IMG/VR virus record: IMGVR_UViG_641201351_000001
Span: 32,001-96,000 of that record
Direction: 5' to 3' (one strand)
DNA length: 64,000 nucleotides
DNA from: a virus
Lineage: Duplodnaviria; Caudoviricetes
The notes beneath the pieces are model-generated. The model saw only the letters and a program-made list of their open reading frames with translations. It was not told where the DNA came from and did not search any database. The translations under genes and the position numbers were made by a program. Numbering within the stretch: position 1 is the first letter of the stretch; each line of letters begins with the position of its first letter. Of this stretch, positions 20,052 to 64,000 are shown one piece after another.

Positions 20052-20067
20052 AGCTTTTGAGATGAGT

Positions 20068-20143
20068 GGCCTCGTAGCTCAACAGGAAGAGCACTCGCCT
20101 TGTAAGCGGGGGGTTGTGGGTTCAAATCCCACCGGGGCCTCCA
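20068..20143 (+). tRNA. tRNA-Thr (anticodon UGU), CCA encoded
   Basis: GGCCTCG/CGGGGCC acceptor, GCTC/GAGC D-stem, CTCGC-CT TGT AA-GCGGG anticodon arm, GTGGG-TTCAAAT-CCCAC T-arm, then T-CCA. Confidence 0.95.
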
Positions 20144-20148
20144 GAAAG

Positions 20149-23485: not shown

Positions 23486-24017
23486 ATTCTTTAAAATCCT
23501 CTGGATCTAATTCTTTTATTTCTTGAGGTAACATATCAAAGTCTTTTGATAAACCGTATTTGTTTAGAATAAAGTAGATTTTGTTAATTAAAACATTTTT
23601 TTGTTTTGTTATTGATTCTATATCTTCTGTTAATTCGCTTTTTGTTTCTGGTGTATCAATTGAACCTTTTTCACAAAAATCCAAATATTTTTCCTTAAAT
23701 ATTTCTGGTGGAAGCTTTCTTAAAGACTCATCAAGACTGTAAAAATTGTTTTTGCATCTAATGACAAAAAAAGACCTATTTTCTAACTCTATTAAATTTT
23801 CTTGATTAATTACAGAATTTTTGTCGTAATCTTTTTCTTCCTGAACCAGAGATGTTTTTCCTTCTGGAGTGTCTGTATCCTCCTTTCTCTGTTTAACATC
23901 TTCAAAATTTTTTTGATTGCTTAATTCCCCTATCGCTTTTAACAAATTTGCTAATAGTGATAAAATTTGAATAAGTGTTGGAAAGATTAAAAATAAAGAC
24001 TTTATAAGCCCAAACAT
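23466..24017 (-). CDS. Hypothetical protein with N-terminal hydrophobic helix
   Basis: 183-aa ORF. Confidence 0.65.
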   Translation of the reverse strand: MFGLIKSLFLIFPTLIQILSLLANLLKAIGELSNQKNFEDVKQRKEDTDTPEGKTSLVQEEKDYDKNSVINQENLIELENRSFFVIRCKNNFYSLDESLRKLPPEIFKEKYLDFCEKGSIDTPETKSELTEDIESITKQKNVLINKIYFILNKYGLSKDFDMLPQEIKELDPEDFKEYAKKNF

Positions 24018-32838: not shown

Positions 32839-33098
32839 TATAGTTTTTCGTTATAGAATTTTTTAGCTTCTTGCAAAAGAAGCTCAAAAAACCAGCCTTC
32901 AAAGGTATCAAGGTGAAAATAATCTAAAATTTCTTCTTCTTTAATGTCAAACAATTTTATTGTGTCAATAAAAGCTTTTACTGCTTCATCAATAAGTCTT
33001 TGTTTTTCTTCTTTGTCGTCTGTGTTTTCAGCTTCTTGAAGTCTAGATTTCATAAATAGCGTTGTGATGGCTGCAATAAGTTGTTTACTCAGCTTCAT
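32838..33098 (-). CDS. Hypothetical head-module protein
   Basis: 86 aa, coupled to both neighbours. Confidence 0.65.
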   Translation of the reverse strand: MKLSKQLIAAITTLFMKSRLQEAENTDDKEEKQRLIDEAVKAFIDTIKLFDIKEEEILDYFHLDTFEGWFFELLLQEAKKFYNEKL

Positions 33099-37662: not shown

Positions 37663-37683
37663 ATTCAAAATTTATTTTATCAT

Positions 37684-50740: not shown

Positions 50741-50770
50741 ATCGGTTTTTATTATACAAGGAAAATATTG

Positions 50771-52609
50771 TTACGCAGCAACGCCACCTCCATCTCCTTG
50801 AGGTAGTTCGCTGTAAACATACACAGAATAGTGTAATCTTTTTTGATTATCAAAGAAAATTTGTGGAATATGTACAGAAGCTCCTCTATTAGTATAAGTA
50901 TCACTAGGAGAAGCTACATAAAGCGGTGCAGCGTCTAGTATTTTATATTCTTTTATAAGATTACCTTGTTCATCAAAAGAAAATCTGAACAAAACGATAA
51001 CTAAATATTCTTCTATTGGGGATTCGTTTGGAGCAGATTTTAAATCGTTTTGCGTATTCAAAAGCCTAAAAGCACCTACTATCGATAAACTACACCCATC
51101 ACTAAAACTTTGAACTGCATTTAATAGCTGAATAAAATAACCAATAATGTTTACGAAATAAAACCCTAGAGAAGAACAATCAGAGATTGCATATTTGTAA
51201 GATAGAATTTGACATATATCTGACTTCGCTGAGTTATTTACAAATACTCCATAAGGAGTTGTTGGATTTGTTGTTTTTTCTTCGAAAATTGGCAAAGCAC
51301 TATTAAAAAACTTATAGTAAAAATCCAAATTGTTGTCTTCACTTACACCAGTAAAATAATTTTCATTAAAAACAAATTTTAGATTTGCTTCATCAAAGTC
51401 ATAGATAACAAAGGTTGCTGGAATTCTAACAAAAGTATAGTGCGACATTGCTACATTTGTTTTACCAATATCTGGTAAATCTTCTATCGTTAAGTAATCA
51501 ATCATTCCCACCAGAACAACTTTGTTGCCAATTTTGAAAAACTTACCATTAATAAAATCGATATGGTTAACATATGTATTACTTACATTAAGTAGATTTG
51601 TAAGAAGAGTGTTCAGATCACTATAAAAGGCTGGAGTGTAAAAATCAGATATTGTTAAACCATCTCGATTGGAAAATTTAATAACTTTTAATAGTAATGG
51701 TTCAAGTTCGACACCAAACCCACTAGTATCATCGTAAAAATAAAAGTAAAGATACGTTCCTAGAACAAACAAATCATCAGAATTATGCACAGCCTGCAAA
51801 AAGTAGCTGTTTACTTGAAATGTATATGGATCCAAAGTGCTTATTCCATAATCTGAAGGGTTTGTAGAAAATGACAACTGATGTTGTGCAAGTATACTCT
51901 TTTGACCACTTTGCGTATCTAATGAATACATCAAAAGTTTAGGCATAAGGTAGAGATCTGACGTAGAGCTTACTCCTGCATATAAAAATAAGCTATTTCC
52001 TTTATACTTCAAAAATCCTTGTTCATATGTTGCGCTATCTGGTAGACAACCTCCAAGGGCTGCATGTTCCAAAATTGGAATTTCTATTCTTTCTAAAGTC
52101 ATTGAATTAGAAGAGATTCTAAAAATAAGATAGATATCGAAGGAAGATAAAATGTAGGTGTTATAATAACCCGTAGTTCTAAACAGGGAATTTTCTACTT
52201 TAATAACCGCCAAATATTCATCAGAACCTACTTGTTGCAGATCATAAAAATTTATAGGATAAATATTAAGAAGCTTGTAAATTTGCTCACCACCTTGAAC
52301 GCTGCATAAATACTGTGAAAGAGCGTTAAAAATTTCACTATCTACATAAGTTAAGTCAATTGATGATACAACGCTGCAGGTATCTTCATAACAACTTGTT
52401 TCATCTACAAGTTTTGCCTCAACTACATAGTTTTGAATTACTTCATCATATCTTCTTGCAAAATAAAAAAGATAGTTTCTTCCGTTTATAGGAAACTTAA
52501 ACGAGGAATAAAGATTATTTTGATTATAATAGTAAGGTAGCAACTCATCAATAAATCCGTTAAAGTTTGGTTCTTGAGTTCTGTTTATGTTTGCGCAATC
52601 TATTCCCAT
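50771..52609 (-). CDS. Tyr-rich beta protein, probable virion / receptor-binding protein
   Basis: 612 aa; shares NS.LP.FE.K, DIC.ILS.K and KILDA..LY with its neighbour. Confidence 0.6.
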   Translation of the reverse strand: MGIDCANINRTQEPNFNGFIDELLPYYYNQNNLYSSFKFPINGRNYLFYFARRYDEVIQNYVVEAKLVDETSCYEDTCSVVSSIDLTYVDSEIFNALSQYLCSVQGGEQIYKLLNIYPINFYDLQQVGSDEYLAVIKVENSLFRTTGYYNTYILSSFDIYLIFRISSNSMTLERIEIPILEHAALGGCLPDSATYEQGFLKYKGNSLFLYAGVSSTSDLYLMPKLLMYSLDTQSGQKSILAQHQLSFSTNPSDYGISTLDPYTFQVNSYFLQAVHNSDDLFVLGTYLYFYFYDDTSGFGVELEPLLLKVIKFSNRDGLTISDFYTPAFYSDLNTLLTNLLNVSNTYVNHIDFINGKFFKIGNKVVLVGMIDYLTIEDLPDIGKTNVAMSHYTFVRIPATFVIYDFDEANLKFVFNENYFTGVSEDNNLDFYYKFFNSALPIFEEKTTNPTTPYGVFVNNSAKSDICQILSYKYAISDCSSLGFYFVNIIGYFIQLLNAVQSFSDGCSLSIVGAFRLLNTQNDLKSAPNESPIEEYLVIVLFRFSFDEQGNLIKEYKILDAAPLYVASPSDTYTNRGASVHIPQIFFDNQKRLHYSVYVYSELPQGDGGGVAA

Positions 52610-52817
52610 AAGTACTATTTTAATCAGAATGTTTTAGCAATAATTTAAATTTGAAAAAGCGTTTACTTACATTTCGCTCTCACTACATATATAAACTTAT
52701 TCCTATTTCGCACTTTATCCAAAACAAAATCCGTTTCAAGTTATTGCCAAAAAACGCAATATATATGGATAGCGTTTAGCTCTTTTTTGTATGGAGTTTG
52801 TGATAAGAATGTTTCTC

Positions 52818-52850
52818 AAAAAATAATTAGGGGGGCTTGTTTGGCCCCCC
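52818..52850 (-). terminator. Intrinsic terminator
   Basis: GGGGGGC/GCCCCCC hairpin with T-rich tail on the minus strand. Confidence 0.7.
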
Positions 52851-52866
52851 ACACCCCTTTCCTCCC

Positions 52867-53073
52867 TTACTTTAGCCTATAGGCATATTCTGTTGCGTAA
52901 GGGAGAAAGGGCACCTCCCAAACCTCAATGTATTCTGCACCCCTTTTCTTAACGATAAGGGCTTCTGCATGGCGATTTATGCCGATAGTCTTGAGAATGT
53001 TCTTGACAAGCATGGGGTTAAGAACAAGAACATACCCCTTTTCGTCCCAAAATTGTCCAATGGGCTTCTTCAT
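52867..53073 (-). CDS. Small early protein (68 aa), paralogue of 53328..53534
   Basis: GGAGGTGA SD before ATG 53073; GAEYIEVW..AYRLK. Confidence 0.8.
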   Translation of the reverse strand: MKKPIGQFWDEKGYVLVLNPMLVKNILKTIGINRHAEALIVKKRGAEYIEVWEVPFLPYATEYAYRLK

Positions 53074-53092
53074 CCCACTCACCTCCACCTTC

Positions 53093-53121
53093 ATAATACC
53101 CTACTTAATCCTTTTTGTCAA
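53093..53121 (-). promoter_or_regulatory. Sigma70-type promoter
   Basis: TTGACA-17 nt-TATTAT. Confidence 0.85.
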
Positions 53122-53280
53122 GCCCCAACACTTAATCACCATGCGTATCATGCGTGTATTCGGCATATAGGGAGGGCGCATAAGCTTGAGTGAGAGTGTG
53201 TTAGGAAAATTTACACGCTGAAACGCTAATGCACAAAATGTAACTTTTTTATTTTTCCCCTAGCGTTTAATTTTGTTTTA

Positions 53281-53314
53281 AAAAAAGATTAAGGGGGGCC
53301 AAGTTAGCCCCCCC
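53281..53314 (-). terminator. Intrinsic terminator
   Basis: GGGGGGC/GCCCCCC hairpin plus T tail on the minus strand. Confidence 0.7.
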
Positions 53315-53327
53315 ACTACGCCTATCG

Positions 53328-53534
53328 CTACTTCAAGCGATAGGCAATATCGTAAAGCTTCCACCCAAAGGTACCCCACACCTCGGCGTAATCGGCCCCA
53401 GAAGAATCAAGCTTTACAAGAAGATAGGGGAAGCGCTCACAAGTACCAATATACTCAAGTACGGACTTCACATCCTGAGAATCTTGCAAGAAAATGTAGC
53501 TATCGTCAAAGTCCCTGAGAAGCTTCTTTTCCAT
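53328..53534 (-). CDS. Small early protein (68 aa), paralogue of 52867..53073
   Basis: GGAGGTGA SD; GADYAEVW..AYRLK. Confidence 0.8.
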   Translation of the reverse strand: MEKKLLRDFDDSYIFLQDSQDVKSVLEYIGTCERFPYLLVKLDSSGADYAEVWGTFGWKLYDIAYRLK

Positions 53535-53553
53535 CCTACTCACCTCCACCTTC

Positions 53554-53582
53554 ATCATAACCCATTAATGACTATTTGTCAA
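53554..53582 (-). promoter_or_regulatory. Sigma70-type promoter
   Basis: TTGACA-17 nt-TATGAT. Confidence 0.85.
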
Positions 53583-53766
53583 GCCTATCTGCCAATAGCG
53601 TGCACCTAACGTTGAGGTAAGTATGAAGTTTGTGTTGGGGAAAATTGCTTAAAGCGTAAACGCATAAACGCTAAACGCAAAGCCACAGAATTTTGTCTGT
53701 TGGAGATATTAATGGATAGCGTTTAATTGTTTTTGTATGCCCCCCTTCAACGGGGGGGCGTGCAAG

Positions 53767-53919
53767 CTAACCTTCTATGACCTCTCCTCCGATGAGGAGG
53801 AATACTATTTTCCCGCCCCTTTTATCCATAGCTTCTAGGGCGAATCCTGACAACCTTATTTCCTCAGCGTACCTGATGAAGTGTAGAAGATTTTCAATGA
53901 ACCTGATGACTTTGCTCAT
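53767..53919 (-). CDS. 50-aa early protein not in the ORF track
   Basis: MSKVIRFIENLLHFIRYAEEIRLSGFALEAMDKRGGKIVFLLIGGEVIEG; own promoter, GGAGGTGA SD and a downstream G/C hairpin. Confidence 0.75.
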   Translation of the reverse strand: MSKVIRFIENLLHFIRYAEEIRLSGFALEAMDKRGGKIVFLLIGGEVIEG

Positions 53920-53937
53920 GGTTCACCTCCCAACACT

Positions 53938-53966
53938 AAGATACCTCTTTTAGTACATTTTGTCAA
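53938..53966 (-). promoter_or_regulatory. Sigma70-type promoter
   Basis: TTGACA-17 nt-TATCTT. Confidence 0.8.
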
Positions 53967-53975
53967 GGGGGGAGT

Positions 53976-54005
53976 AAAAAGAAAAACCTCCCCTTTACGG
54001 GGAGG
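53976..54005 (-). terminator. Repeated terminator CCTCCCC-loop-GGGGAGG
   Basis: Hairpin followed by TTTTTCTTTTT on the minus strand. Confidence 0.85.
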
Positions 54006-54021
54006 TTAAGGTTAGGGGGGC

Positions 54022-54252
54022 TTACTTAAACTCCTTCACATAAGGAGCTTGCAAGCCCCTCTGCCTTATTAACAAAACCCTATCAGGAAACACAGCGAGA
54101 GAGTGATGAACAAAGTCAAGCTTGCTTAGAGTTTCGGAGAAGTCCAAAAGAAGGACTTCACCAAAGTTTTCATCCTCCAAGATTTTTACCGAGATTCCGA
54201 GATTGAGGGATTCAAGGAACTCTTTCAACGCTTCTTTCTCTTGCCTAGTCAT
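54022..54252 (-). CDS. Small early protein (76 aa)
   Basis: GGAGGTGA SD before ATG 54252. Confidence 0.75.
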   Translation of the reverse strand: MTRQEKEALKEFLESLNLGISVKILEDENFGEVLLLDFSETLSKLDFVHHSLAVFPDRVLLIRQRGLQAPYVKEFK

Positions 54253-54271
54253 GCTCATCACCTCCACCCTC

Positions 54272-54300
54272 ATCTTAGCACCAGAAAATAAGTGCGTCAA
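54272..54300 (-). promoter_or_regulatory. Sigma70-type promoter
   Basis: TTGACG-17 nt-TAAGAT with TG extension. Confidence 0.8.
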
Positions 54301-54327
54301 GAGGCATTAGCGTTTACTTAGCGTTTT

Positions 54328-54357
54328 AAAAAAGAAAAACCTCCCCGAAAGGGGAGG
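54328..54357 (-). terminator. Repeated terminator CCTCCCC-loop-GGGGAGG
   Basis: Hairpin plus T run. Confidence 0.85.
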
Positions 54358-54381
54358 CTACACTTCCTCTACCATTTCCAC

Positions 54382-54618
54382 TCAGGATCGGATATACATC
54401 ACGCTATCCCCGTAGTACCATGCACTAAGTACTTTATCTTTGTCAGTAACTACCACGGCCACTCCAGTTGGATTGTGAAGATTAAAGTAGATGTCGTGTG
54501 TTAGACCATACTCATCTTCAGCGATGATGTGTAAGAGATCGCCGTCTGTATAGACTTCCTTTACTTTTTTCCTGACCAAAGACCCGTTTAGTAAGATGTT
54601 TAGTACCTTTCCGACCAT
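54382..54618 (-). CDS. Small early protein (78 aa)
   Basis: AAGGAGGTGA SD before ATG 54618. Confidence 0.75.
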   Translation of the reverse strand: MVGKVLNILLNGSLVRKKVKEVYTDGDLLHIIAEDEYGLTHDIYFNLHNPTGVAVVVTDKDKVLSAWYYGDSVMYIRS

Positions 54619-54656
54619 CTTCTTCACCTCCTTGAGCCTTCCTCAGGCTCACATCT

Positions 54657-54685
54657 ATCTTAATACCTCAGCACCTCAAAGTCAA
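54657..54685 (-). promoter_or_regulatory. Sigma70-type promoter
   Basis: TTGACT-17 nt-TAAGAT. Confidence 0.75.
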
Positions 54686-54863
54686 GGCTCCATAGCGTGT
54701 ACATTATCTATTTCTAGGTGCGTATGCTTGCGATTTGCGATTTATTTACGCTAAAAGCGTAATACACGCTAAAAGCAAAATAAAAACTATCTCCAAAATA
54801 CTTTTTCCACTTAGCTTTATCAAAACACTATAGGTTATCTTTTGCGTTTACTTAGCACATCTT

Positions 54864-54892
54864 AAAAGAAAAGACCTCCCCTTTCGGGGAGG
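54864..54892 (-). terminator. Repeated terminator CCTCCCC-loop-GGGGAGG
   Basis: Hairpin plus T-rich tail. Confidence 0.85.
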
Positions 54893-54908
54893 TATCCTTG
54901 TAGGGATT

Positions 54909-55154
54909 TTACTCTACAAGGATCTTACGAATCTTGCCCTTTCTTTCCTCTATGCGCACTTTTCCAAAGGGGCTGTCCTCAAAGCCAACAAGCCTCCAGC
55001 TACTAGCACTAGTAACGCGGCATTGATCGCACCTCTTGGGTGGTTTGGTCTTAGCTTCAGCCACAAACTCCTTTCCACACTTCTCGCAAACGAGGACGAT
55101 CTTTTTAGGTGTCGGGCTCCTTTTCGTCATGCTAGCCTTTGTGCTCTTTCCCAT
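54909..55154 (-). CDS. Basic Zn-ribbon protein, paralogue of 59036..59266
   Basis: CEKCGKEF..PPKRCDQCR; AAGGAGGT SD. Confidence 0.85.
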   Translation of the reverse strand: MGKSTKASMTKRSPTPKKIVLVCEKCGKEFVAEAKTKPPKRCDQCRVTSASSWRLVGFEDSPFGKVRIEERKGKIRKILVE

Positions 55155-55190
55155 CTTTTACCTCCTTTGTCCCCTTGCGGGGACACCTTC

Positions 55191-55219
55191 ACTATACCTC
55201 ATATCCCCCTTTTTGTCAA
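55191..55219 (-). promoter_or_regulatory. Sigma70-type promoter
   Basis: TTGACA-17 nt-TATAGT. Confidence 0.85.
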
Positions 55220-55504
55220 GACCTATCTTGTGGGGTTTATTAGGGGGGGCGCTCAAAGCGTGTAGATTTGAAGATTGTCGTGAGATTTTGAAGATAGTTA
55301 AATGTAAACGCTAAAGCAGAGATTAGGGAGAGTTTTATGAAAATAAACGCTAGGATAATAAAAGTTTTGATTTTGAGATTTTTATTTTTGGGGTTTTTGT
55401 TTTTGAGATTTTTTGATCATTGGGTTTGTTTTGGGCGCTTGTTTTAAAATCTATTGAAAGCGTTTACTTGTTTTTGCGCAAAATAAAAAACAAAACATTT
55501 TCTT

Positions 55505-55990
55505 TTAATCTTCGTAAACAATCAAAATAGCATTCTTTGATATTCCTAGTTTAATAGCTTTCTCGTAAGTATCAACTACTATATCTGCAGATTTTATGTA
55601 TCTGGAGTTCATTGTGTCGTAGACAATACCTTCAAAAATTCCTAAATCTGAGATGATTTTTACTTTTTTGCCGCAAAGATGTTTTTTACGATTTTTGTCA
55701 AAGAATAAATCTTGTGATAGCGCTATGATTGTTTCTTTAACTCTTTCTATTGGGCCACAAGAGGCAACATATGGATCATCATCAGTTTGCTGAGGAACTA
55801 AGTTATAGAAGGATAATCTATTTAGCTTTTTGGCTAGAATAATATTAAAGTCTTCTTTGCTTTTGTCTTTTATGTAAAAATTCTTTGCGATTTGATATCT
55901 TTTATGGGCGATTTTTTCTTTGATCACAAAATATTGATCAATCATTAGAGGATTGAACAAAAACAGGAAAATGGTAAAAAGTTTTTTCAT
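55505..55990 (-). CDS. Exported 3D-domain / RlpA-like lytic transglycosylase-type protein
   Basis: Hydrophobic N-terminus; YN..PQQTDDDPYVASCG, IIALSQDL and VYDTMN..ADI. Confidence 0.7.
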   Translation of the reverse strand: MKKLFTIFLFLFNPLMIDQYFVIKEKIAHKRYQIAKNFYIKDKSKEDFNIILAKKLNRLSFYNLVPQQTDDDPYVASCGPIERVKETIIALSQDLFFDKNRKKHLCGKKVKIISDLGIFEGIVYDTMNSRYIKSADIVVDTYEKAIKLGISKNAILIVYED

Positions 55991-56023
55991 CTTGTTCCTC
56001 CTTTGCGTTTAGTTACCGAGCCT

Positions 56024-56051
56024 AAAGAAAAAACCTCCCCGAAAGGGGAGG
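56024..56051 (-). terminator. Repeated terminator CCTCCCC-loop-GGGGAGG
   Basis: Hairpin plus T run. Confidence 0.85.
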
Positions 56052-56073
56052 TTTTCTTCTTCAGGTATGCAGG

Positions 56074-56439
56074 TTAACTGACATACCTGAAGAATGGCAA
56101 CACCTTGGGGTGAGGAACTACCTCAATGATTAGTTTTTTTCCGTCAAAGCTAGAGATGATTAGCCCATCGTCAAGATATAGGTAGACATTCCTATCCCCC
56201 CTCGGAACGACAAAGAAGTTAGCAAAACCATTGTAACCCTCAGGAACCCCCCTAAGTGAAGCACCAGCGTACTCTACAAAGATGCGCCTAAGGTTAGAAA
56301 CCTCTACAAAGGCCCTAACGCTAAGCGCATCTTCACCCTTCTTCACATTCCCACCGATTTTTACATCGGTAGGCAGACCCCACTTCTCAAGGTACCTCTT
56401 GACCTCTTCCACGATCTTGTTCTGGAGTTTTTCTTCCAT
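56074..56439 (-). CDS. Early hypothetical protein (121 aa)
   Basis: AGGAGGTG SD before ATG 56439. Confidence 0.8.
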   Translation of the reverse strand: MEEKLQNKIVEEVKRYLEKWGLPTDVKIGGNVKKGEDALSVRAFVEVSNLRRIFVEYAGASLRGVPEGYNGFANFFVVPRGDRNVYLYLDDGLIISSFDGKKLIIEVVPHPKVLPFFRYVS

Positions 56440-56479
56440 CTTACACCTCCTCGCCTGAGGATTTACCCCAGGCACCTTC

Positions 56480-56508
56480 ATCCTACCACACCTTTCGTCT
56501 TGTGTCAA
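56480..56508 (-). promoter_or_regulatory. Sigma70-type promoter
   Basis: TTGACA-17 nt-TAGGAT with TG extension. Confidence 0.8.
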
Positions 56509-56641
56509 GCCCTCCCCCTCTCCGAGCATTGACTTGAGATTTTCGTGCGCTTTTGCGAGAAAGCTAAAATGTAAACGCTTTGGGAGAAATGAACGCTGAA
56601 ACGCTTAAGCAAAGAATGGTGTGTCTTGTTTTGTGGTAATA

Positions 56642-57250
56642 TTAAAAGTTTTCTTCTATTTCAAAGAGAACGCAAATATAACTCCTAGAAACGACAATGC
56701 TTTCTGTTTTCTTTGATAGTGAAACTTGGGAGATTAAAGGAAAGTATATTTCTTTTTCTTTGGCAAAATCTTCTTCTTTTGCCGGATAAAAGAAAATGTT
56801 TTTGCTTTCTATTGTTTGATAGGATCTCGTTATTGGGCTGTAAAATTTTTGTTGTGTTGTTTTTATCTTCATGAGAAAAGGTTTTGTTGAGTTGATGAGA
56901 TATCTCTTTTCGTCATCATTAACATAGTTTAAATACATGCTTTCAAAAAGCAAATCTAAAAAGTCTTCTAAGCCGCTTTCTAAATCTTCTTTATTTGGAA
57001 ACATGTCAAAAGTTTTTCTGAGGTAAAAGAAAGATTTATTTACAGCTTCTAGATGAGAGAAGGGGTTATCTAGTCTTCTTTCTTTTAACTGAAAAAGTAT
57101 TGATCTGCTAAAAAACTTTGGTTTTCTAAGAAAAAGAAGCTCTTTGTTTTGTTCAAGGATTTTTTCAACTGCTTCATAAATCATTGACTTAACTTTGTTT
57201 TGGTCAAATTTTTTGCTATCTAGCAAAATTAGTTTTTTCTCTAGCCTCAT
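56642..57250 (-). CDS. Hypothetical protein, C-terminal EENF
   Basis: Leaderless behind the promoter at 57257-57285. Confidence 0.8.
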   Translation of the reverse strand: MRLEKKLILLDSKKFDQNKVKSMIYEAVEKILEQNKELLFLRKPKFFSRSILFQLKERRLDNPFSHLEAVNKSFFYLRKTFDMFPNKEDLESGLEDFLDLLFESMYLNYVNDDEKRYLINSTKPFLMKIKTTQQKFYSPITRSYQTIESKNIFFYPAKEEDFAKEKEIYFPLISQVSLSKKTESIVVSRSYICVLFEIEENF

Positions 57251-57256
57251 GTTTTT

Positions 57257-57285
57257 AGGTTAGCAAAGCGCTAAAGCGTTGTCAA
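57257..57285 (-). promoter_or_regulatory. Sigma70-type promoter (leaderless)
   Basis: TTGACA-17 nt-TAACCT, then 6 nt and ATG. Confidence 0.8.
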
Positions 57286-57348
57286 GCGTTATATATTTGA
57301 GATGACAGCGTTTACTTATTTTTTCGTTAGAAAAAACTAAAAATTTTC

Positions 57349-57783
57349 TCAAAACACTTCTCTTAATATCACAAACTCAACTTCTCCAAAGCACAAATAT
57401 AGCGAACTATTTTTATCATAAACTCCAAAAATTGGTTTGTATATTGAATATGATCGGTGCGCATAATCCTTTTCAGACTTTTCTTTTAAGTAATATCTAA
57501 TCAAATCTTCATAATCTTCTATTTGTATAATGTCAAGAAGTTCTAATGTTATTCTTCTTTTGAAATCCTCCACGCTTGCATGTTCTTTTAAAGCAAACAT
57601 TCTTTTTTCTTTCCAGCGATTTAAAGCGTGTTTGTAATTTTTAAAATTCTCTTTGTATTTTGAATACGCTTTCTCAAAATCTTTGTAGTAAGTAATTTTG
57701 TGAGCATAATGCTTTAGAGAAATCATCGGGCTGTAGTGAGGTTGTGCAAAAAAGTATTTTTTGGCCTTTACTTCAAAAATCAT
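57349..57783 (-). CDS. Hypothetical protein, paralogue of 57796..58221 (ends REVF)
   Basis: EVK.KKYF..P.Y.P.I.LK.Y and YEDLI..YL shared with the neighbour. Confidence 0.85.
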   Translation of the reverse strand: MIFEVKAKKYFFAQPHYSPMISLKHYAHKITYYKDFEKAYSKYKENFKNYKHALNRWKEKRMFALKEHASVEDFKRRITLELLDIIQIEDYEDLIRYYLKEKSEKDYAHRSYSIYKPIFGVYDKNSSLYLCFGEVEFVILREVF

Positions 57784-57795
57784 AATTAAACCCCT

Positions 57796-58221
57796 TCAAA
57801 ACACTTCATGAATTTTCACATATTCAACTTCTCCGAAAAATACATAAGCTAGATTACTTTTATCGTGAAACCCCAAAATCGGTTTATGTATCAAAAAGAG
57901 ATTTCTTTTAAACTTCCCATTCAAATATGAAGTTATCAAATCTTCGTAAGTTTCCATTGGAAACATATAAAGAACTTCTGATGTTCTTAAATTTTCAAAG
58001 TATTCTATAGGTTTTAATTCTTCCTCTAAAACAAACATTTTTATTCCCTCCCAACGATTAAATGCAACTTTGTAATTACGAAATTCTTTTTTGTAGGCTT
58101 CAAAAGCATTTTCAAAGGTTTTGTAATAGTAAATTTTGTAAGTATATCTCTTTAAGTGTATCTTTGGATTGTAGTAGGGTTTTACATAGAAATATTTTTT
58201 ACCCTTGACCTCCAATGTCAT
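57796..58221 (-). CDS. Hypothetical protein, paralogue of 57349..57783 (ends HEVF)
   Basis: AGGAGGTGA SD; colinear similarity to the neighbour. Confidence 0.85.
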   Translation of the reverse strand: MTLEVKGKKYFYVKPYYNPKIHLKRYTYKIYYYKTFENAFEAYKKEFRNYKVAFNRWEGIKMFVLEEELKPIEYFENLRTSEVLYMFPMETYEDLITSYLNGKFKRNLFLIHKPILGFHDKSNLAYVFFGEVEYVKIHEVF

Positions 58222-58239
58222 GACTCACCTCCTAGCATC

Positions 58240-58268
58240 AGGCTAACACAAGGGGTGCTAAAAGGCAA
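58240..58268 (-). promoter_or_regulatory. Sigma70-type promoter
   Basis: TTGCCT-17 nt-TAGCCT with TG extension. Confidence 0.6.
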
Positions 58269-58369
58269 GAAGGGCTTTGGTGTGGAAAAGGGTATTAAAA
58301 TAGGGGGCCCAAAAATATGTGGATAGCGTTTACTTAGTTTTGGCAAAAATAAAAACAAAAAATAATTTC

Positions 58370-58479
58370 CTAGAAAATCTCTAGTGGAAAAATTTCAAAA
58401 ACTTCTATATCTCCGAACAAAAGATTTCTCTATGTACTATTGGTCTAGTTTTCATTACAAACGGAATGTTTATGTTCAC
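58370..58479 (-). pseudogene. Frameshifted 3' remnant of the 57349/57796 family
   Basis: MKTRPIV in one frame and RNLLFGDIEVFEIFPLEIF-stop in another; compare HKPILG..FGEVEYVKIHEVF. Confidence 0.45.
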
Positions 58480-58480
58480 C

Positions 58481-58927
58481 TCAAAAGTAAGGAAAATAGT
58501 CAGGGAAAAATATTAAGTCTACAAGTATTCTCTTCTTCGGATTATATCTATGTGTACTTTCGGCAAAAGACAATATGATTGTATCAGGAACTAAACCTTT
58601 CCTATACGCAGATATTACCTTTTTGTGAATAAAAGGATGTGGGTTTTTAATAAATTCAAAAATGTTTTTGGATTTTCTATAGTTAAGCCTGAAGTTATAG
58701 GGTGTAAAGGTAAAATATTGGTTTAGCATTAAAAACGCCTTAATACCAATATCTACAGGAATATCTGTACTTACATACTTGTATCCGCTATATTTGTGGT
58801 CTTCCTTTAATCCGTATCCTTGAGGATTAAGAAATTCATTTACATCTTGAGCATACTTTTCTAAAATTTTCTTAAAGTGCGAACTTTTTACAATATAAAG
58901 TTTTGCGTAAGTGCTGCTTGCAACCAT
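58481..58927 (-). CDS. Hypothetical protein (ends FPYF)
   Basis: Leaderless behind the promoter at 58934-58962. Confidence 0.75.
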   Translation of the reverse strand: MVASSTYAKLYIVKSSHFKKILEKYAQDVNEFLNPQGYGLKEDHKYSGYKYVSTDIPVDIGIKAFLMLNQYFTFTPYNFRLNYRKSKNIFEFIKNPHPFIHKKVISAYRKGLVPDTIILSFAESTHRYNPKKRILVDLIFFPDYFPYF

Positions 58928-58933
58928 GCTTGT

Positions 58934-58962
58934 ACCCTATCACACACCAGGGGAATAGTCAA
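58934..58962 (-). promoter_or_regulatory. Sigma70-type promoter (leaderless)
   Basis: TTGACT-17 nt-TAGGGT with TG extension, then 6 nt and ATG. Confidence 0.65.
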
Positions 58963-58992
58963 GGGGGGCTTAGCGTTTACTTAATTTTGGGT

Positions 58993-59020
58993 AAAAGAAA
59001 AACCTCCCCTTTCGGGGAGG
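58993..59020 (-). terminator. Repeated terminator CCTCCCC-loop-GGGGAGG
   Basis: Hairpin plus T run. Confidence 0.85.
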
Positions 59021-59035
59021 CTTGTATTCTTCTTG

Positions 59036-59266
59036 CTATTCAACCAAGATTTTCCTCACTTTACCATTCCTTTCCTCAACCCTAACCTTACCATATTTAG
59101 TATCCTCGTAGCCAATCACTTTCCATGTAGTATTCTTGCGGCAATCTTCACAATATTTAGGAGGACGGGTTTTGCTTTCGGTAACAAACTCCTTTTGGCA
59201 CTTTTGGCACACAATCAAGACCTTCTTTACATGAACATTACGGACCTTCTTTTCGTTCTTGCCCAT
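59036..59266 (-). CDS. Basic Zn-ribbon protein, paralogue of 54909..55154
   Basis: CQKCQKEF..PPKYCEDCR; GGAGGTGA SD before ATG 59266. Confidence 0.85.
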   Translation of the reverse strand: MGKNEKKVRNVHVKKVLIVCQKCQKEFVTESKTRPPKYCEDCRKNTTWKVIGYEDTKYGKVRVEERNGKVRKILVE

Positions 59267-59285
59267 CTTCTTCACCTCCACCCCC

Positions 59286-59314
59286 AAGATACCACAAAGA
59301 AAGATGATTGTCAA
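59286..59314 (-). promoter_or_regulatory. Sigma70-type promoter
   Basis: TTGACA-17 nt-TATCTT with TG extension. Confidence 0.85.
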
Positions 59315-59416
59315 GGGGGGATTGAGAAGATTGACCTCGGTTGGGCTGGTTTTGCGTGAACTTCAGACTGCAAAGTTGCGAAGTTTGGAAGGGGATTGTT
59401 AAAAATAAACGCTTAA

Positions 59417-59824
59417 TCATAAATTGTCAGTTTCTTTATTTTCTTCTAGTTCCCTCAACTTTTTAGCATAAAACCACTCTAAGAAGATGATAAAAAGTGT
59501 GTTAAATAGGAGATAAAGAACTAAGTCATTTGTATAAATCTTTTTTGTTATCATTTCTGTGGCAAAAAGAAAAATAAATTGAATTACAATGAAAGCTAAT
59601 ATTAAAATCCTTAAAAGGGGAATATCTTTGAAATCTGGATAAGTTTTCAAATAAGAGTCCTCAGCTTTTTTGCCAAAATTCATCATGAATATCGCAAACA
59701 AAATATAAAATTCCTTTTCGCTTAAAGCTAATAATTTTGCAACAATAAAAGAAAATGCGTTATAAATTAAATAGAAAAACATTGACATTCTTATTGATTG
59801 TATTTGTGCTTCATGCTTGTTCAC
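59417..59824 (-). CDS. Four-TM membrane protein
   Basis: GAGGTG SD, GTG start, four hydrophobic segments. Confidence 0.75.
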   Translation of the reverse strand: MNKHEAQIQSIRMSMFFYLIYNAFSFIVAKLLALSEKEFYILFAIFMMNFGKKAEDSYLKTYPDFKDIPLLRILILAFIVIQFIFLFATEMITKKIYTNDLVLYLLFNTLFIIFLEWFYAKKLRELEENKETDNL

Positions 59825-59834
59825 TTTTCACCTC

Positions 59835-60380
59835 TCAGAAAGAAATGTTCTTTTTAACAAGGTAAGCGTTAGCGTACACTCTGAAAATATCTTCTCTTTC
59901 ACCTTTAAACTCTACTTCTAACCTAAAAATTTTTATTGGCACAAAAAGATACGCTGGTATTCTTTGTAGAATTTGCAAATCATTACATGCTTTAAAAAGC
60001 TCTTTAAAGGACTTAAAGAAAAATGCATGGTTTTCTACTCTTTTTAAATTTCTTGAAATTTCTAAAAAAAACTCAGAATCAGCAGATCCTTTTACTGCAA
60101 GTGTTCTTGCTACACTAGCGGGATAAAGAAGCCAATATATGTCTTTCAAATCCACACTTTCTACCGAAACAAGTTTAAGATTTTTTAGTTTTAATATTTG
60201 CGGCCCTAACCCTTCATTTAGCATTTTAAAATCTTTTTCTATTTGAGAAAAATCATCTATGAAAACAACTTTGTTGCTAACGATTGAAGCCAATTTTTCA
60301 GACATTTTTTGAATATAGTCTTTTTCATTAAAGACTGCATATCGTTTATGTAAAACATCTAAGAATGGTGGTACTTCCAT
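59835..60380 (-). CDS. Hypothetical protein (ends NISF)
   Basis: GGAGGTGA SD behind a promoter. Confidence 0.8.
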   Translation of the reverse strand: MEVPPFLDVLHKRYAVFNEKDYIQKMSEKLASIVSNKVVFIDDFSQIEKDFKMLNEGLGPQILKLKNLKLVSVESVDLKDIYWLLYPASVARTLAVKGSADSEFFLEISRNLKRVENHAFFFKSFKELFKACNDLQILQRIPAYLFVPIKIFRLEVEFKGEREDIFRVYANAYLVKKNISF

Positions 60381-60405
60381 TTAGGTTCACCTCCCCCCAA
60401 GAGGG

Positions 60406-60434
60406 AGTGTAACACAAGCCTAGGCGCTTGTCAA
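60406..60434 (-). promoter_or_regulatory. Sigma70-type promoter
   Basis: TTGACA-17 nt-TACACT with TG extension. Confidence 0.85.
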
Positions 60435-60502
60435 GAGCGCTTGATAAATGTGTATATATTTTGATAGCGTTTATTTGTTTTATGACAAAACAAAAAAATT
60501 CC

Positions 60503-61045
60503 TTAAAATATCTCGTTAAGGCTATACAAATACATCTTTCCTAGCATTGCAGAAACCTCTATTTTTAGAGAGGTTTCTTCAGGTTTTGTATTTTCAAAGG
60601 TTATGTAATAATCGGGAATAAAGATTTGACCTTTTTTAAAATCAAAGATGTTGTCAATAGCGTAAAAGTATTTTTTGCTTACAACTTTAACTCTTATTTT
60701 GTCGCTATAAATTCCATTTATTCCATTTGCTGGAACAGCATAATCTGCTATGTAAAAAGCTATATCGTTTTTAAAAGTTTTTATTTTTCTTGGCGCAAAT
60801 TTGTCAAGTAGCGATTCAAAAGGTGCGGATCTATAGTGATAAAGATTTTTAACAAATAAAGTTCCCAAATCAAGAATTGTGTCTATATCATATTTGTCTT
60901 CCTCAAAAATCATCATTGGAAGCCTTTTCTTTTCATTAAAGTCAAACTTTTTACCATTCTGAGTAATGTAGTATCTGAAGATAACAAGAACTTCATCAGA
61001 AAATTTTTTCTCAAAAACTTCAGTATTTACGATGTTTCTAATCAT
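60503..61045 (-). CDS. Hypothetical protein (ends NEIF)
   Basis: TAATG coupling; AGGAGGTG SD inside the upstream gene. Confidence 0.8.
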   Translation of the reverse strand: MIRNIVNTEVFEKKFSDEVLVIFRYYITQNGKKFDFNEKKRLPMMIFEEDKYDIDTILDLGTLFVKNLYHYRSAPFESLLDKFAPRKIKTFKNDIAFYIADYAVPANGINGIYSDKIRVKVVSKKYFYAIDNIFDFKKGQIFIPDYYITFENTKPEETSLKIEVSAMLGKMYLYSLNEIF

Positions 61046-61575
61046 TAAAACACCTCCTCTATTTTGTATTCATACAAAACTCCAATTAATCCTTCTATCA
61101 TTCCAGAAAGTTCATCTGTATCTTTCAAAAGTATTTTCCTTTGTGCAACAAATAAAGTATCGCCTTCTATTACTTCTTTTAAATCTTTTATCTCTTCTAT
61201 TTGAGAAGGCCTAAGATAAACAATAGACATTGTGTAGTCATCAATAACATGTTCGCTATAATCATCAATAAAAACCGAGAAATACTTTTTTTCAATAGCT
61301 TTGCTACAAACAACCTTTGTGCTGAAAGTCTTCAACAAATCTCTCTCAAGAGATAAACATGACAAGTTGTTGTAAAAATACTCAATTGATCTGTAAAAAG
61401 TTTTGTTGTCTACGAAATCAGAAATAATGAAAGATTTGTACAAAGAAAACTCTCCTACTATTTCGTCAGCAAAGCGATTGTTTTCGCTAGGATAATAGTC
61501 TAGTTCTAGATACGCTTTATATCTCTTCAAGATTTTAAAGGACTTTGACTCCAAGAAACCTTCTACTGCTTTCAT
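61045..61575 (-). CDS. Hypothetical protein, paralogue of 62337..62867 (ends EEVF)
   Basis: YKAYLEL.YYP..NRFADEIV and GMIEGL.GVLYEYKIEEVF; likely start MKAVEG. Confidence 0.85.
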   Translation of the reverse strand: MKAVEGFLESKSFKILKRYKAYLELDYYPSENNRFADEIVGEFSLYKSFIISDFVDNKTFYRSIEYFYNNLSCLSLERDLLKTFSTKVVCSKAIEKKYFSVFIDDYSEHVIDDYTMSIVYLRPSQIEEIKDLKEVIEGDTLFVAQRKILLKDTDELSGMIEGLIGVLYEYKIEEVF

Positions 61576-61618
61576 TCTAATCCCCCCCTTCTTAAAGACA
61601 TAATCATAGCAATGAAAC

Positions 61619-62131
61619 TTAAAAAATCTCTTCACGATGCTTTACTCTATATATTCTTCCAACAAAACATTTTTCAATTAATTCTACCCTTTTAAACCAT
61701 CTGCCTTCTCTAAATGACTCAACAACAGAATCAACAATAAGCAAGTAAACTGCAGGATAAAGCATTTCTAAATCTGTTATTCTCTCTCTTATGTAATTCA
61801 CTTCTGAAATCTTCATTCTATCGTAAACATAAGTTGTGTGAATTACTCTTTTGTTAGAAATAACCTTTTTCTCACTACCACTATGAGCTATAATATAGCA
61901 ATCATACTCAGGGTCAAGAACTTGGTAAAAATAAATGTATTTGCGTCCTATCTTGTCAGTTGTTAGCTTAGATATCTTTTTCAAGTATTCCTCTTTGTTC
62001 AAAATCTTCACTTCTCTAGATATGCCGCTATTAGAGAAAAAGTAGTTGGCATCTAAGATTTCTAAAAAAGGCAAAAAGTTTTTGAGGCTTTTGTAATCTT
62101 CTAGTTCTTTAATAATGCTTTCCCCCACCAT
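61619..62131 (-). CDS. Hypothetical protein, paralogue of 63510..64000 (ends EEIF)
   Basis: FLPFLEI, KEEY, DK.GRKY.YF, YDR, YP.VYLL and GRIY shared. Confidence 0.85.
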   Translation of the reverse strand: MVGESIIKELEDYKSLKNFLPFLEILDANYFFSNSGISREVKILNKEEYLKKISKLTTDKIGRKYIYFYQVLDPEYDCYIIAHSGSEKKVISNKRVIHTTYVYDRMKISEVNYIRERITDLEMLYPAVYLLIVDSVVESFREGRWFKRVELIEKCFVGRIYRVKHREEIF

Positions 62132-62148
62132 GACACCTCCCCTCTTAA

Positions 62149-62177
62149 AGGCTACTGCTAAGGCCCTATAAAGTCAA
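62149..62177 (-). promoter_or_regulatory. Sigma70-type promoter
   Basis: TTGACT-17 nt-TAGCCT. Confidence 0.65.
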
Positions 62178-62268
62178 GAAGAGAGAGGCAAGGCTTTATG
62201 AAGCACAAAAGCTAGGGGGGGGAAGATATATTTAGGATAGCGTTTACTTGTTTTTAACGAAACAAAAA

Positions 62269-62337
62269 TCAAAAAGCTTCATTTGGAGTGTGGAAATGTC
62301 TATAAAACGGGGGACTATTTACTATGTCTTTAATCAT
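62269..62337 (-). CDS. 22-aa mini-ORF, internally deleted copy of 60503..61045
   Basis: MIKDIVNSPPFYRHFHTPNEAF; same SD and TGATG coupling as the paralogous junction at 61045. Confidence 0.55.
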   Translation of the reverse strand: MIKDIVNSPPFYRHFHTPNEAF

Positions 62338-62867
62338 CAAAACACCTCCTCTATTTTGTATTCATATAAAACTCCAGCCAATCCTTCTATCATTCCAGGA
62401 AAATCGCTAACATCATCAAGTAATATTTCTCTTTCAGCAACAAATAGTTGGTAGTTTCCTACTAGTTCTCTTAAGCTTTTTACTTCTTCTATTTGTGAAG
62501 GTTTGAGATATGAAACGACTATTGAGCTAACTTCATTGCTATAATCAACATATTCGTCAATAAAAAGCGAATAATATTTTTTGGCAATTCTCTTGCCACT
62601 AATAACTTTCGTATCAAAAGTTTTAAATAAATCTCTTTCTAATGTTAAACCAGACATAACATTGTAGTAATACTCAATGGCCTTGTAAAAGATTTTGTTG
62701 CTTACATAGTCAGAAATAATAAAAGCCTTACAACGAGAAAATTCTTCAACTATTTCGTCTGCAAAACGATTGCTATTGTTTGGATAGTAATTAAGTTCTA
62801 AGTAAGCTTTGTATATCTTTAATGCTTTAAAGTTAGCCGATTTTAAAAATTCCTCTAAAACTTTCAC
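62337..62867 (-). CDS. Hypothetical protein, paralogue of 61045..61575 (ends EEVF)
   Basis: AAGGAGG SD; high colinear similarity. Start 62867-62876. Confidence 0.85.
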   Translation of the reverse strand: MKVLEEFLKSANFKALKIYKAYLELNYYPNNSNRFADEIVEEFSRCKAFIISDYVSNKIFYKAIEYYYNVMSGLTLERDLFKTFDTKVISGKRIAKKYYSLFIDEYVDYSNEVSSIVVSYLKPSQIEEVKSLRELVGNYQLFVAEREILLDDVSDFPGMIEGLAGVLYEYKIEEVF

Positions 62868-62884
62868 CTGCATCACCTCCTTTC

Positions 62885-63373
62885 TCAGAACATGTAATCA
62901 TAGGTCAATAAAAACCCCAGACCTAAAATATTGTGTGTTTCTTTCAATTTTCTAAAGCCTGCATTTAACACAAAAAACTCATCGTACTCCATAATAGGAA
63001 GAAACATAAAGTCTGTAAAATAATCTTCAATATGTGGCTTTACGAATGAGAAAATATTTTCCTCGTTTATTTCTTTAAATAAGATTTTTCCGTTTTCATC
63101 GTTAGTTACAAAAAATAGCTTTTCTTCATCGTAAAACTTAATATTTTTCACTTTTCTATCAGCGTCTTGATCTAAGGAAGCTTTTATTGCAGTATTTAAA
63201 AAATGTTCAAAATTTTTTCCTCCCAGATCAGTTTCGTATATGTGAGAAATCGTTGAAGCCACATCATTATCAAAATAATAGTATTTGATAGTTACTATTG
63301 AAAAGTGTCTTGCTTTAAACATTCCACTAATCTTCTTGATTTTTTCGTTTACTAAGCGAATGTATTCTTTCAT
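62885..63373 (-). CDS. Hypothetical protein (ends DYMF)
   Basis: GGGGGTGA SD before ATG 63373. Confidence 0.8.
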   Translation of the reverse strand: MKEYIRLVNEKIKKISGMFKARHFSIVTIKYYYFDNDVASTISHIYETDLGGKNFEHFLNTAIKASLDQDADRKVKNIKFYDEEKLFFVTNDENGKILFKEINEENIFSFVKPHIEDYFTDFMFLPIMEYDEFFVLNAGFRKLKETHNILGLGFLLTYDYMF

Positions 63374-63392
63374 CTCTTCACCCCCTCGCCTT

Positions 63393-63421
63393 AGTTTAAA
63401 GGACAAAACGCCTTAGGTCAA
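63393..63421 (-). promoter_or_regulatory. Sigma70-type promoter
   Basis: TTGACC-17 nt-TAAACT. Confidence 0.7.
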
Positions 63422-63509
63422 GTAGCGTGCAAGCGCTCAGTTGTCTATATATAGAGGATAGCGTTTATCTAACCTTTCACAAAAAAGAAAAAAATAAAAA
63501 ACAATAATC

Positions 63510-64000
63510 TTAGAATACTTCTTTGCGATATTTGATCTTATATATTCGTCCTAAAGTTGACTCCTCAACTATTTCTATTCTTTTTGTAAACATATTTTCT
63601 TTATAAGACGCAATCCTGTAATCAAGTACCAATAAGTAAACATTTGGATAAATGTTACTAACAAACTCTACTTCTCTTTGGAAGCTTTTTATTTTAATGG
63701 GAGAAGAATTATTAAATCTATCATATATGTAAGAAGGAAAACGCTTTCTAACATTAGATAATATATTGCTTTCTTCCCATTCGTGATAAACTAGATAGTA
63801 TTTCGTTTCAGGGCGAAAAATTTGGTGGAAATATAAATACTTCCTGCCTTTTTTGTCAACTACTAGGCGAGATAAAATTCTAATATATTCTTCTTTTTCT
63901 ATCATTTTTATTTCATTAGAAACTTTCCACCCAGAACGAAAGTATTGTGATTTAATTATCTCAAGGAAAGGAAGAAAAGGTTTAATATCTTGAAAATCAT
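63510..64000 (-). CDS. Hypothetical protein, 5' partial, paralogue of 61619..62131 (ends KEVF)
   Basis: Frame stays open to the window edge (DFQDIKPFLPFLEII..). Confidence 0.85.
   Translation of the reverse strand, partial: DFQDIKPFLPFLEIIKSQYFRSGWKVSNEIKMIEKEEYIRILSRLVVDKKGRKYLYFHQIFRPETKYYLVYHEWEESNILSNVRKRFPSYIYDRFNNSSPIKIKSFQREVEFVSNIYPNVYLLVLDYRIASYKENMFTKRIEIVEESTLGRIYKIKYRKEVF

Follow-up and report, generated by a model that had tools for sequence, protein, structure and literature searches.

Acidic C-terminal tails ending in phenylalanine (Phe) are present in bacterial SSB and in the T7 proteins gp2.5 and gp4. PMC3973332 describes conserved C-terminal tails in Thermus SSB, and it presents the conserved tail as a site of interaction. 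The present analysis concerns a run of minus-strand phage genes whose otherwise divergent products have Phe as the very last residue, with the C-terminal pattern x-[E/D]-hydrophobic-Phe. The run begins at position 56,642 of a 64,000-nucleotide stretch of viral DNA (hereafter the window), which corresponds to positions 32,001–96,000 of the 152,372-bp virus record IMGVR_UViG_641201351_000001 (Duplodnaviria; Caudoviricetes), and it extends to the window's right-hand end at 64,000 and beyond.

Because the region 56,642–64,000 has about 90% identity to the Thermus phages TMA and YS40_Isch, the virus is identified as a phiYS40-type myophage of Thermus thermophilus, that is, a hot-spring phage. The GC content is about 31–39%. 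Four related phages are compared below: the present one, TMA, YS40_Isch, and one IMG/VR record. How YS40_Isch, TMA, and phiLo relate to each other is treated in PMC6452258. A literature search returned no description of the family or of its terminal Phe; the phiYS40 and TMA genome papers, which lay outside that search, may mention paralog families or contain data on virion content and timing.

Terminal Phenylalanine in the Window and in the Wider Block

A preliminary description of this DNA, made from the sequence alone, had reported eleven divergent proteins ending in Phe, mostly as E-[VI]-F and usually after a G-x-hydrophobic-Y strand. All eleven quoted C-termini are present in translations of minus-strand open reading frames (ORFs) between 56,642 and 64,000; seven of them have the E-[VI]-F ending, and the quoted strands do precede the tails. 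Phe is the very last residue in 11 of the 12 minus-strand ORFs of at least 130 amino acids (aa) in this region (P = 1.4e-11 at the rate of 10/121 found outside the block defined below). When BLAST-independent clusters are counted in the window, 8 of 9 end in Phe (P = 1.8e-8).

The run continues beyond the window to form a block of about 30 kb (genome 88.6–118.1 kb), in which 34 of 48 ORFs (at least 50 aa) end in Phe, as compared with 10 of 121 outside (Fisher p 7.4e-16). The genome-wide ORFs are a greedy set of the longest ORFs of at least 50 aa and not the output of a gene finder; a few entries are probably not genes, and these would therefore only dilute the Phe signal. BLAST clustering of block ORFs of 120–260 aa at a threshold of E 1e-4 gives 32 clusters, 25 of which contain a member ending in Phe. 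Phe constitutes 6.7% of all residues. Tabulation of terminal residues across the genome, which had been proposed as a check, places terminal Phe as uncommon outside the block, and it is at background also in phiLo, another large Thermus myophage (10 of 203 ORFs). Among the 34 Phe-ending proteins, in which F at −1 is universal by selection (34/34), position −2 is V, L, or I in 25 and position −3 is E or D in 21; 28 of the 34 fall within 140–200 aa. The diversified family suggested by the preliminary description is thus borne out, and with 34 genes in the genome it is larger than was claimed. It would amount to a hidden family taking up roughly a fifth of the phage genome, which ordinary methods annotate as 'hypothetical'.

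On balance, these genes probably represent one paralog family, restricted to this lineage, that was amplified in tandem, has diverged extremely, and carries x-[E/D]-hydrophobic-Phe as a C-terminal latch. It is likewise somewhat likely that the eleven proteins of the window are the left end of this family, which would comprise the 34 Phe-ending genes in 25 BLAST-unrelated clusters.

Selection on the Tail at the Protein Level

In the four phages, 116 genes in 27 clusters end in Phe. The Phe codon is TTT in 68 and TTC in 48, both occurring inside 14 of the 27 clusters; the stop codon is TGA in 50, TAA in 43, and TAG in 23; and 23 different codons are found at −2. This variety bears out the earlier proposal that the constraint acts on the protein. 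The codons that had been reported are also as stated, with GAGGAGGTG in the two EEVF genes and GAA GTG, GAA GTA, GAG ATA, or GAG ATT in others. Within clusters, the terminal residue is the most conserved column (about 0.95 identical vs a mean of 0.74); the excess over this mean is +0.21 at −1, +0.07 at −3, and +0.04 at −2. The median ratio of nonsynonymous to synonymous substitution rates (dN/dS) of the family genes against the three other phages is 0.18–0.23, with 0.13–0.29 for neighboring non-family genes, and the Phe-tail genes are therefore real genes. Strong protein-level selection keeps the tail.

It could still be asked whether the 3′ ends are constrained at the nucleotide level, as Shine-Dalgarno sequences, termination contexts, or cassette boundaries, with Phe a by-product. 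In genes of clusters k08 and k14, GAG GAG GTG and AAG GAG GTG ATT serve the following gene as its Shine-Dalgarno sequence, the tail is enriched for codons ending in G or C (TTC 41% vs 19% genome-wide; GAG 46% vs 21%), and three further ORFs of the block owe their NSVP[ST] tails to a DNA motif. However, both Phe codons, all three stops, and the 23 different −2 codons are in use; 18 of the 33 minus-strand Phe-ending genes have no coupled downstream gene, being followed by a gap of at least 46 nucleotides (nt), whereas the next ORF lies within 20 nt in the other 15; and the stop codon precedes the Shine-Dalgarno sequence in most coupled pairs. A nucleotide-level cause is largely refuted by the codon data and is, for the tail as such, scarcely credible. 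The Shine-Dalgarno explanation in particular was rejected for the whole family on the grounds of codon variety and uncoupled genes. A nucleotide layer is present in a minority of genes, as seen in the enrichment of G- and C-ending tail codons and in the k08 and k14 tails that double as Shine-Dalgarno sequences; the need for a Shine-Dalgarno sequence has probably influenced the three tandem k14 genes, with their KEVI, REVI, and KGVF tails.

The DNA motif in question, CTTCCAGACTTnnnTAATAGTGTACCAAC, is about 28 nt long and occurs in eight copies, seven at genome 105330–115187 (minus strand) and one at 25336. It is probably a promoter-like element, and the three ORFs have NSVP[ST] tails because it overlaps their 3′ ends. 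In YS40_Isch and the IMG/VR phage, the ortholog of the NSVP[ST]-tailed protein ends earlier, in D-[VI]-L. A different kind of extension is found in P0003–P0006, metagenome relatives of the 179-aa protein encoded at window 62337–62876, which have six residues beyond the Phe (EEVFWWLE[KN][WL]). Since TGA TGA comes directly after the Phe codon in the window, these extensions look like an annotation artefact in which TGA is read as Trp.

Architecture of the C-Terminal Tail

In the 27 cluster representatives, those of the window included, the last 13 residues make up an amphipathic strand whose register is fixed relative to the chain end. Hydrophobic residues occupy 89 of 135 sites at −5/−7/−9/−11/−13 vs 44 of 135 at −4/−6/−8/−10/−12 (p 6.5e-8), and the remaining proteome has no such pattern at the same positions (241 vs 255 of 595). 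At −12 the residue is Gly or a polar one, as would suit a hairpin turn. Nearer the end, −2 is hydrophobic in 22 of the 27 representatives, −3 is acidic in 18, and −5 is hydrophobic in 15, whereas −4 is acidic in 8 clusters and basic in 9. Across the 27 representatives, a C-terminal β-hairpin of fixed register thus precedes x-[E/D]-hydrophobic-Phe. Where a family member lacks the terminal F, its last residue is I, V, L, Y, or M, which is what a packing position would lead one to expect.

The analogy with the tails of SSB and T7 gp2.5, which the preliminary description had drawn, is not supported by this architecture. There is no flexible linker: the tail begins only two residues past the strand, the last strand of the structural model described below ends at −5, and the combined share of G, P, S, and Q is 12.2% in the last 30 aa vs 12.8% overall.

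T4-type prohead-protease sites resemble a hydrophobic-x-Glu motif. The hydrophobic −5 and acidic −3 residues of the phage tails would suit such a site, and the phage has a head maturation protease; hydrophobic-x-Glu plus two residues might then serve as a virion-targeting or prohead-protease motif that marks internal head proteins. The expression signals argue otherwise, because the Shine-Dalgarno leaders carried by the block genes and the sigma-70-like promoter sites (50 TTGACA-type promoter-like sites on the coding strand vs 35 +/- 6.2 in shuffles) do not suggest late genes. In addition, it is hard to see what removal of a dipeptide would achieve, and a role of this kind is exceedingly doubtful.

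Relatedness and Fold of the Family Members

The proteins had been called otherwise divergent, which is accurate: ordinary sequence methods detect little similarity between clusters. No Pfam family is above cut-off in the 31 block ORFs shorter than 260 aa, except in one dCMP-deaminase ORF outside the family; each PHROG covers just one cluster; and iterative hidden Markov model searches within the genome from four subfamilies recruited nothing new. The 179-aa protein (62337–62876) has only 7 relatives among 5.8 billion proteins, and the family profile matches 10 proteins among 1.84 billion representatives (of 9 fetched, 7 end in F and 2 are N-terminal fragments). The family appears from these searches to be lineage-restricted, and deep alignments are, with so few homologs, not obtainable.

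Common descent is nevertheless indicated by three lines of evidence, namely long colinear pairs, the fixed strand register, and a confident model from a merged alignment. In hhalign comparisons, the pairs c24–c26 (E 2.3e-4 over 145 columns) and c22–c23 (E 4e-3 over 131 columns) are colinear. The merged alignment joins five BLAST-unrelated clusters in 12 rows from two phages; only Met1 and the terminal Phe are invariant in it, and a [YL]-x-[LI]-[ED]-E motif is shared. AlphaFold2 on this 12-row alignment, with a 149-aa member (genome 107090–107539) as the query, gives a model with a predicted local distance difference test score (pLDDT) of 80.7 and a predicted template modeling score of 0.78. 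The model consists of strands 7–16 and 21–25, helix 28–51, strands 56–67 and 80–84, helices 86–90 and 94–108, and strands 114–127 and 131–145; the tail DELF is without regular structure, and stretches below pLDDT 50 are nowhere as long as three residues.

A Foldseek search of BFVD returned a public, independently made model of this protein, which matches at a template modeling (TM) score of 0.96. Of the 14 other BFVD matches at E <= 1e-3, 13 are unnamed accessions, and these would, judging from accession series and exact length, be proteins of this phage group. On that assignment, they would include clusters k21, k27, and k24 of the merged alignment and, outside it, k14, k15, k16, and probably k13, k23, and k29. 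The check for a common fold that the preliminary description had called for is therefore answered in part: five clusters co-fold and Foldseek adds about five by the tentative assignment just given, whereas fold evidence does not extend to the window's eight clusters. The result counts in part against that description, which had named simple paralogy through a shared fold as grounds for refuting it.

Searches among solved structures with the 149-aa model gave no convincing counterpart in the PDB (best TM about 0.39). Kinesin motor domains, which were the best PDB matches in Foldseek, were rejected as a generic α/β resemblance (TM 0.29–0.39, root-mean-square deviation 7–9 Å or worse). A PDB profile search with profile A1 found nothing below E 0.86, and the ESM Atlas lists the 170-aa protein without a model and yielded no usable match for it. 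Three tandem paralogs at genome 102531–104107, the counterparts of TMA_110/111 and YS40_114, are labeled glycosyltransferase in public records; this label is not supported by Pfam, with no such family at E <= 0.1 in the three. Foldseek appears to group these paralogs with the Phe-tail fold.

Copy numbers also vary among the four phages in at least ten clusters. After the stop of the gene at 62337–62876, window positions 62290–62336 read TGATTAAAGACATAGTAAATA..., which resembles the gene start that follows the paralog at 61045–61635, TGATTAGAAACATCGTAAATA...; with its stop after five codons, this segment is taken as a decayed remnant of a duplicated multi-gene unit. The copy-number differences and the degenerate copy of a gene start together show recent tandem duplication.

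That unrelated proteins acquired the same tail by convergence, under a common selective demand, would agree with the finding that most clusters have no detectable similarity once the tail is removed. It does not sit well with a strand register that is common over 13 residues, with the similar lengths of the proteins, with the co-folding of five clusters and the further links made by Foldseek, or with a tandem gene arrangement in which recent duplications are evident, and convergence is judged to be very improbable.

Several results weigh against a single family with a structural latch. After removal of the last four residues, the hhalign medians are 13.5 for pairs of Phe-ending clusters and 12.8 for decoys, and only 5 of 351 cluster pairs beat the best of 540 decoy pairs (the 20 decoys were single sequences, so that the profile–profile control is uneven). 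Addition of clusters to the merged profile recruited none at E < 0.01, and its growth stopped at five. Foldseek TM scores to clusters outside the alignment are modest (0.36–0.55). The last part of the 149-aa model, residues 141–149, has a mean pLDDT of 76, so that the tail is possibly less certain. AlphaFold2 on the 179-aa window protein with a shallow alignment of 9 rows reached a pLDDT of 36.9; Foldseek with this poor model gave no match at E <= 1e-3, and the model was not used as evidence. Finally, a plain core residue would not obviously need to be the very last one in 116 genes, or to stay Phe. A strictly terminal Phe, kept while other core positions drift, also fits recognition of Phe-COOH by a pocket.

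Possible Docking and Other Proposed Functions of the Tail

Docking onto one shared partner is what the preliminary description had favored. In the form considered here, [E/D]-hydrophobic-Phe-COOH would be a common docking peptide that plugs all members into one host or phage pocket, and the bodies would bring the targets. The strictly terminal position of Phe in 116 genes and its status as the sole invariant column besides Met1 in the merged alignment are in its favor. So are the acidic −3 residues and the behavior of −2, which accepts K, T, S, N, or M in some clusters while F stays. A candidate partner lies in the middle of the block, on the minus strand at genome 97575–100323, where a 347-aa AAA+ ATPase (Pfam AAA, AAA_5) is encoded together with a 562-aa protein. 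The latter combines an HEILH motif with a low-complexity stretch rich in Q and N and with a VWA-like domain (DUF2201) that contains DTSGS. The pair has the lowest dN/dS in the block (0.03 for the ATPase and 0.06 for the 562-aa protein), and it is a docking candidate because metal-ion-dependent adhesion sites (MIDAS) bind carboxylates.

Ten ORFs outside the block also end in Phe, and they include a primase (EESEFTF, 19944–21620), a Cas4-like exonuclease (DSELWF, 22975–23901), and a UvsY-like protein (NERKIF, 10816–11331). These three ends may be genuine replisome docking tails, and docking through Phe-COOH may therefore exist in this phage.

Against a common docking peptide stands the architecture of the tail, which is attached to a strand of fixed register without a flexible linker. 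The receptor families sought in the phage (PDZ_2, the T4-type gp45 clamp, the β-clamp, and bacterial SSB) were not found. The TMA transposase, used as a possible route to the SSB tail of a host, had no relatives. Moreover, phiLo, which infects the same host, has no enrichment of terminal Phe, and a host hub that favors such tails is thus not generally exploited. A common docking peptide is regarded as unlikely, although it is the main rival of the structural latch. If it were true, it would add a new mode of organizing host takeover to those used by phages. An extended version, in which about 34 binders plug through Phe-COOH as a universal handle into one machine (most attractively the ATPase/VWA pair, or else a host hub) and make up a modular adaptor arsenal, is speculative and should be considered unlikely. 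It would mean that many host targets are delivered to one remodeling or degrading engine, and it would give bacterial viruses an equivalent of the F-box-type multigene families found in large viruses of eukaryotes.

In bacteria, proteolysis is known to be directed by C-terminal residues. The same ATPase and HExxH-motif protein, and the confinement of the tails to one contiguous block of co-oriented genes, would be compatible with a C-terminal stability tag, in which Phe-COOH labels the whole gene class so that a protease or unfoldase recognizing C-termini either removes the products at a set time or spares them. However, degrons do not typically lie in so structured a context as this tail, and nothing ties the tail to a protease; such a tag is improbable.

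In the favored reading of one diverged paralog family with a structural latch, the members would descend from one small α/β domain with the order β-β-α-β-β-α-β-β, which would end in a β-hairpin followed by x-[E/D]-hydrophobic-Phe-COOH. With a common ancestral domain, the tail would have been inherited and not independently acquired, and the window's eight clusters would presumably belong to the same fold. The four-residue tail would be a short latch contiguous with the fold, in which the ring of the terminal Phe, the free carboxylate, and the acidic −3 residue fasten the last strand at its end, either to the domain itself or to an adjacent subunit, probably with the Phe buried. Such a latch would matter at the growth temperature of the host, and the rest of the surface would be free to diverge. 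The proteins have no invariant polar residue and thus look like non-enzymatic binders, not enzymes. Tandem copy-number change between strains would fit a role in host takeover or counter-defense. Expression of the genes would presumably be early, as the preliminary description had supposed.

One residue that survives total divergence provides a simple experimental handle on the role of the whole block. If the structural latch is true, the C-terminal residue would be a keystone of the fold at high temperature. The proteins should, coming from a thermophile phage, be easy to handle for structural work.

Genes and Other Sequence Features of the Window

The Phe-tail genes of the window are all on the minus strand. 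At its left end, the run opens with a 202-aa ORF at 56642..57250 (ending EIEENF, cluster k02), which has no Pfam or PHROG match; its orthologs end in F in all four phages, and its dN/dS is 0.20 vs YS40_Isch. Cluster k03 is represented by two tandem paralogs, a 144-aa ORF at 57349..57783 (ILREVF) and a 141-aa ORF at 57796..58221 (KIHEVF; phrog_24400, of unknown function). Orthologs of the latter in the three other phages end in DVY, with Tyr in place of Phe. The singleton cluster k04, a 148-aa ORF at 58481..58927 (DYFPYF), is of uncertain gene status: no ortholog was found in the examined stretches of the three other phages, and no PHROG below E 0.03. The sole ORF of at least 130 aa without a terminal Phe is a hydrophobic one of 135 aa at 59417..59824 (TDNL, minus strand), which is not counted in the family.

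Farther to the right lie a 181-aa ORF at 59835..60380 (KKNISF, cluster k06; phrog_29441), whose TMA ortholog ends in NIFF, and a 180-aa ORF at 60503..61045 (SLNEIF, cluster k07; phrog_35511), whose start shares 1 nt with the stop of the gene upstream. Cluster k08 has two members in the window, both ending in KIEEVF. That at 61045..61635 is 196 aa long from the first GTG, and probably 176 aa from an internal ATG; that at 62337..62876 encodes the 179-aa protein, with three paralogs of 99/60/42% identity. Cluster k09 also has two, a 170-aa ORF at 61619..62131 (HREEIF; phrog_17563, three paralogs in the genome) and an ORF at 63510..64000 (YRKEVF), which is cut by the window end and is 171 aa in the genome. 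Between these lies a 173-aa ORF at 62885..63406 (TYDYMF, cluster k10; phrog_35976), whose relatives end in DYTF or DYKF, so that F is kept and −2 is variable.

Two small paralogous minus-strand ORFs of 81 and 92 aa (54909–55154 and 59036–59314) contain CxxC...CxxC and both end in KILVE; one of this pair lies within the Phe-tail run. At the right end of the block, a 143-aa minus-strand ORF at genome 116271–116702 resembles a dCMP/cytidine deaminase (PF00383, 25.4 bits vs a cut-off of 25); it ends in KDYT and is not a family member. The window also contains a terminase-like gene and genes for the tail sheath, the major head protein, and the head maturation protease. It encodes, in addition, three proteins of about 1,500–1,750 aa, with all of these genes on the minus strand. 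Large paralogs without an assigned function form two pairs (1527/1744 aa and 650/612 aa), located at window 33085–42918 and 48788–52609.

PMC4124052 states that analysis of YS40 yielded no transcription factors. At window 52500–56600, near-consensus TTGACA-17-TATxxT sites and CCTCCCC-loop-GGGGAGG terminators are dense on the minus strand among very small ORFs. The sequence AAGTAAACGCT(ATCC) is found on the minus strand at about 14 intergenic sites, after T-rich tracts, from window position ~52671 to 64000 and onward (genome 84671–102101). Several copies are followed 8–45 nt later by a TTGAC −35-like hexamer, and the sequence is a possible upstream promoter element or regulator site for this gene class.

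Comparison With Known Systems

The tails of SSB and gp2.5 resemble those of the phage in that a terminal Phe with a free carboxylate is key and an acidic residue often precedes it, in the phage at −3 in 18 and at −4 in 8 of the 27 representatives. They differ in their setting, since they come at the end of an extended flexible segment of a DNA-binding protein with an OB-fold, whereas the tail of the phage proteins follows a strand; the modeled member is an α/β domain and not an OB-fold, and PF00436 (SSB) has no match in the genome at E <= 1. The composition differs as well: Pro is at −2 in 1 of the 27 phage representatives, and a CCT or CCA codon is at this position in 5 of the 116 genes.

The C-terminal 'β-signal' of Gram-negative outer-membrane β-barrels is similar in having an amphipathic last strand that ends in a terminal Phe. 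However, the phage model is α/β, with helices 28–51 and 94–108, and is not a barrel; no signal-peptide-like N-termini were noticed when the N-termini were read by eye. T4 internal proteins, like the phage proteins, are divergent and have a common short terminal signature. In their case, the signature is N-terminal, targets the capsid, and is cleaved, and the genes are late, whereas the phage signature is C-terminal and its genes have Shine-Dalgarno leaders and sigma-70-type promoter sites. Other large viruses also have lineage-specific expansions of tandem paralogs with a terminal adaptor motif in common, for instance the ankyrin/F-box-like proteins of poxviruses. These share with the phage a block of diverged paralogs, copy-number change between strains, and a short conserved C-terminal element; the conserved element of the phage is three or four residues and not a domain.

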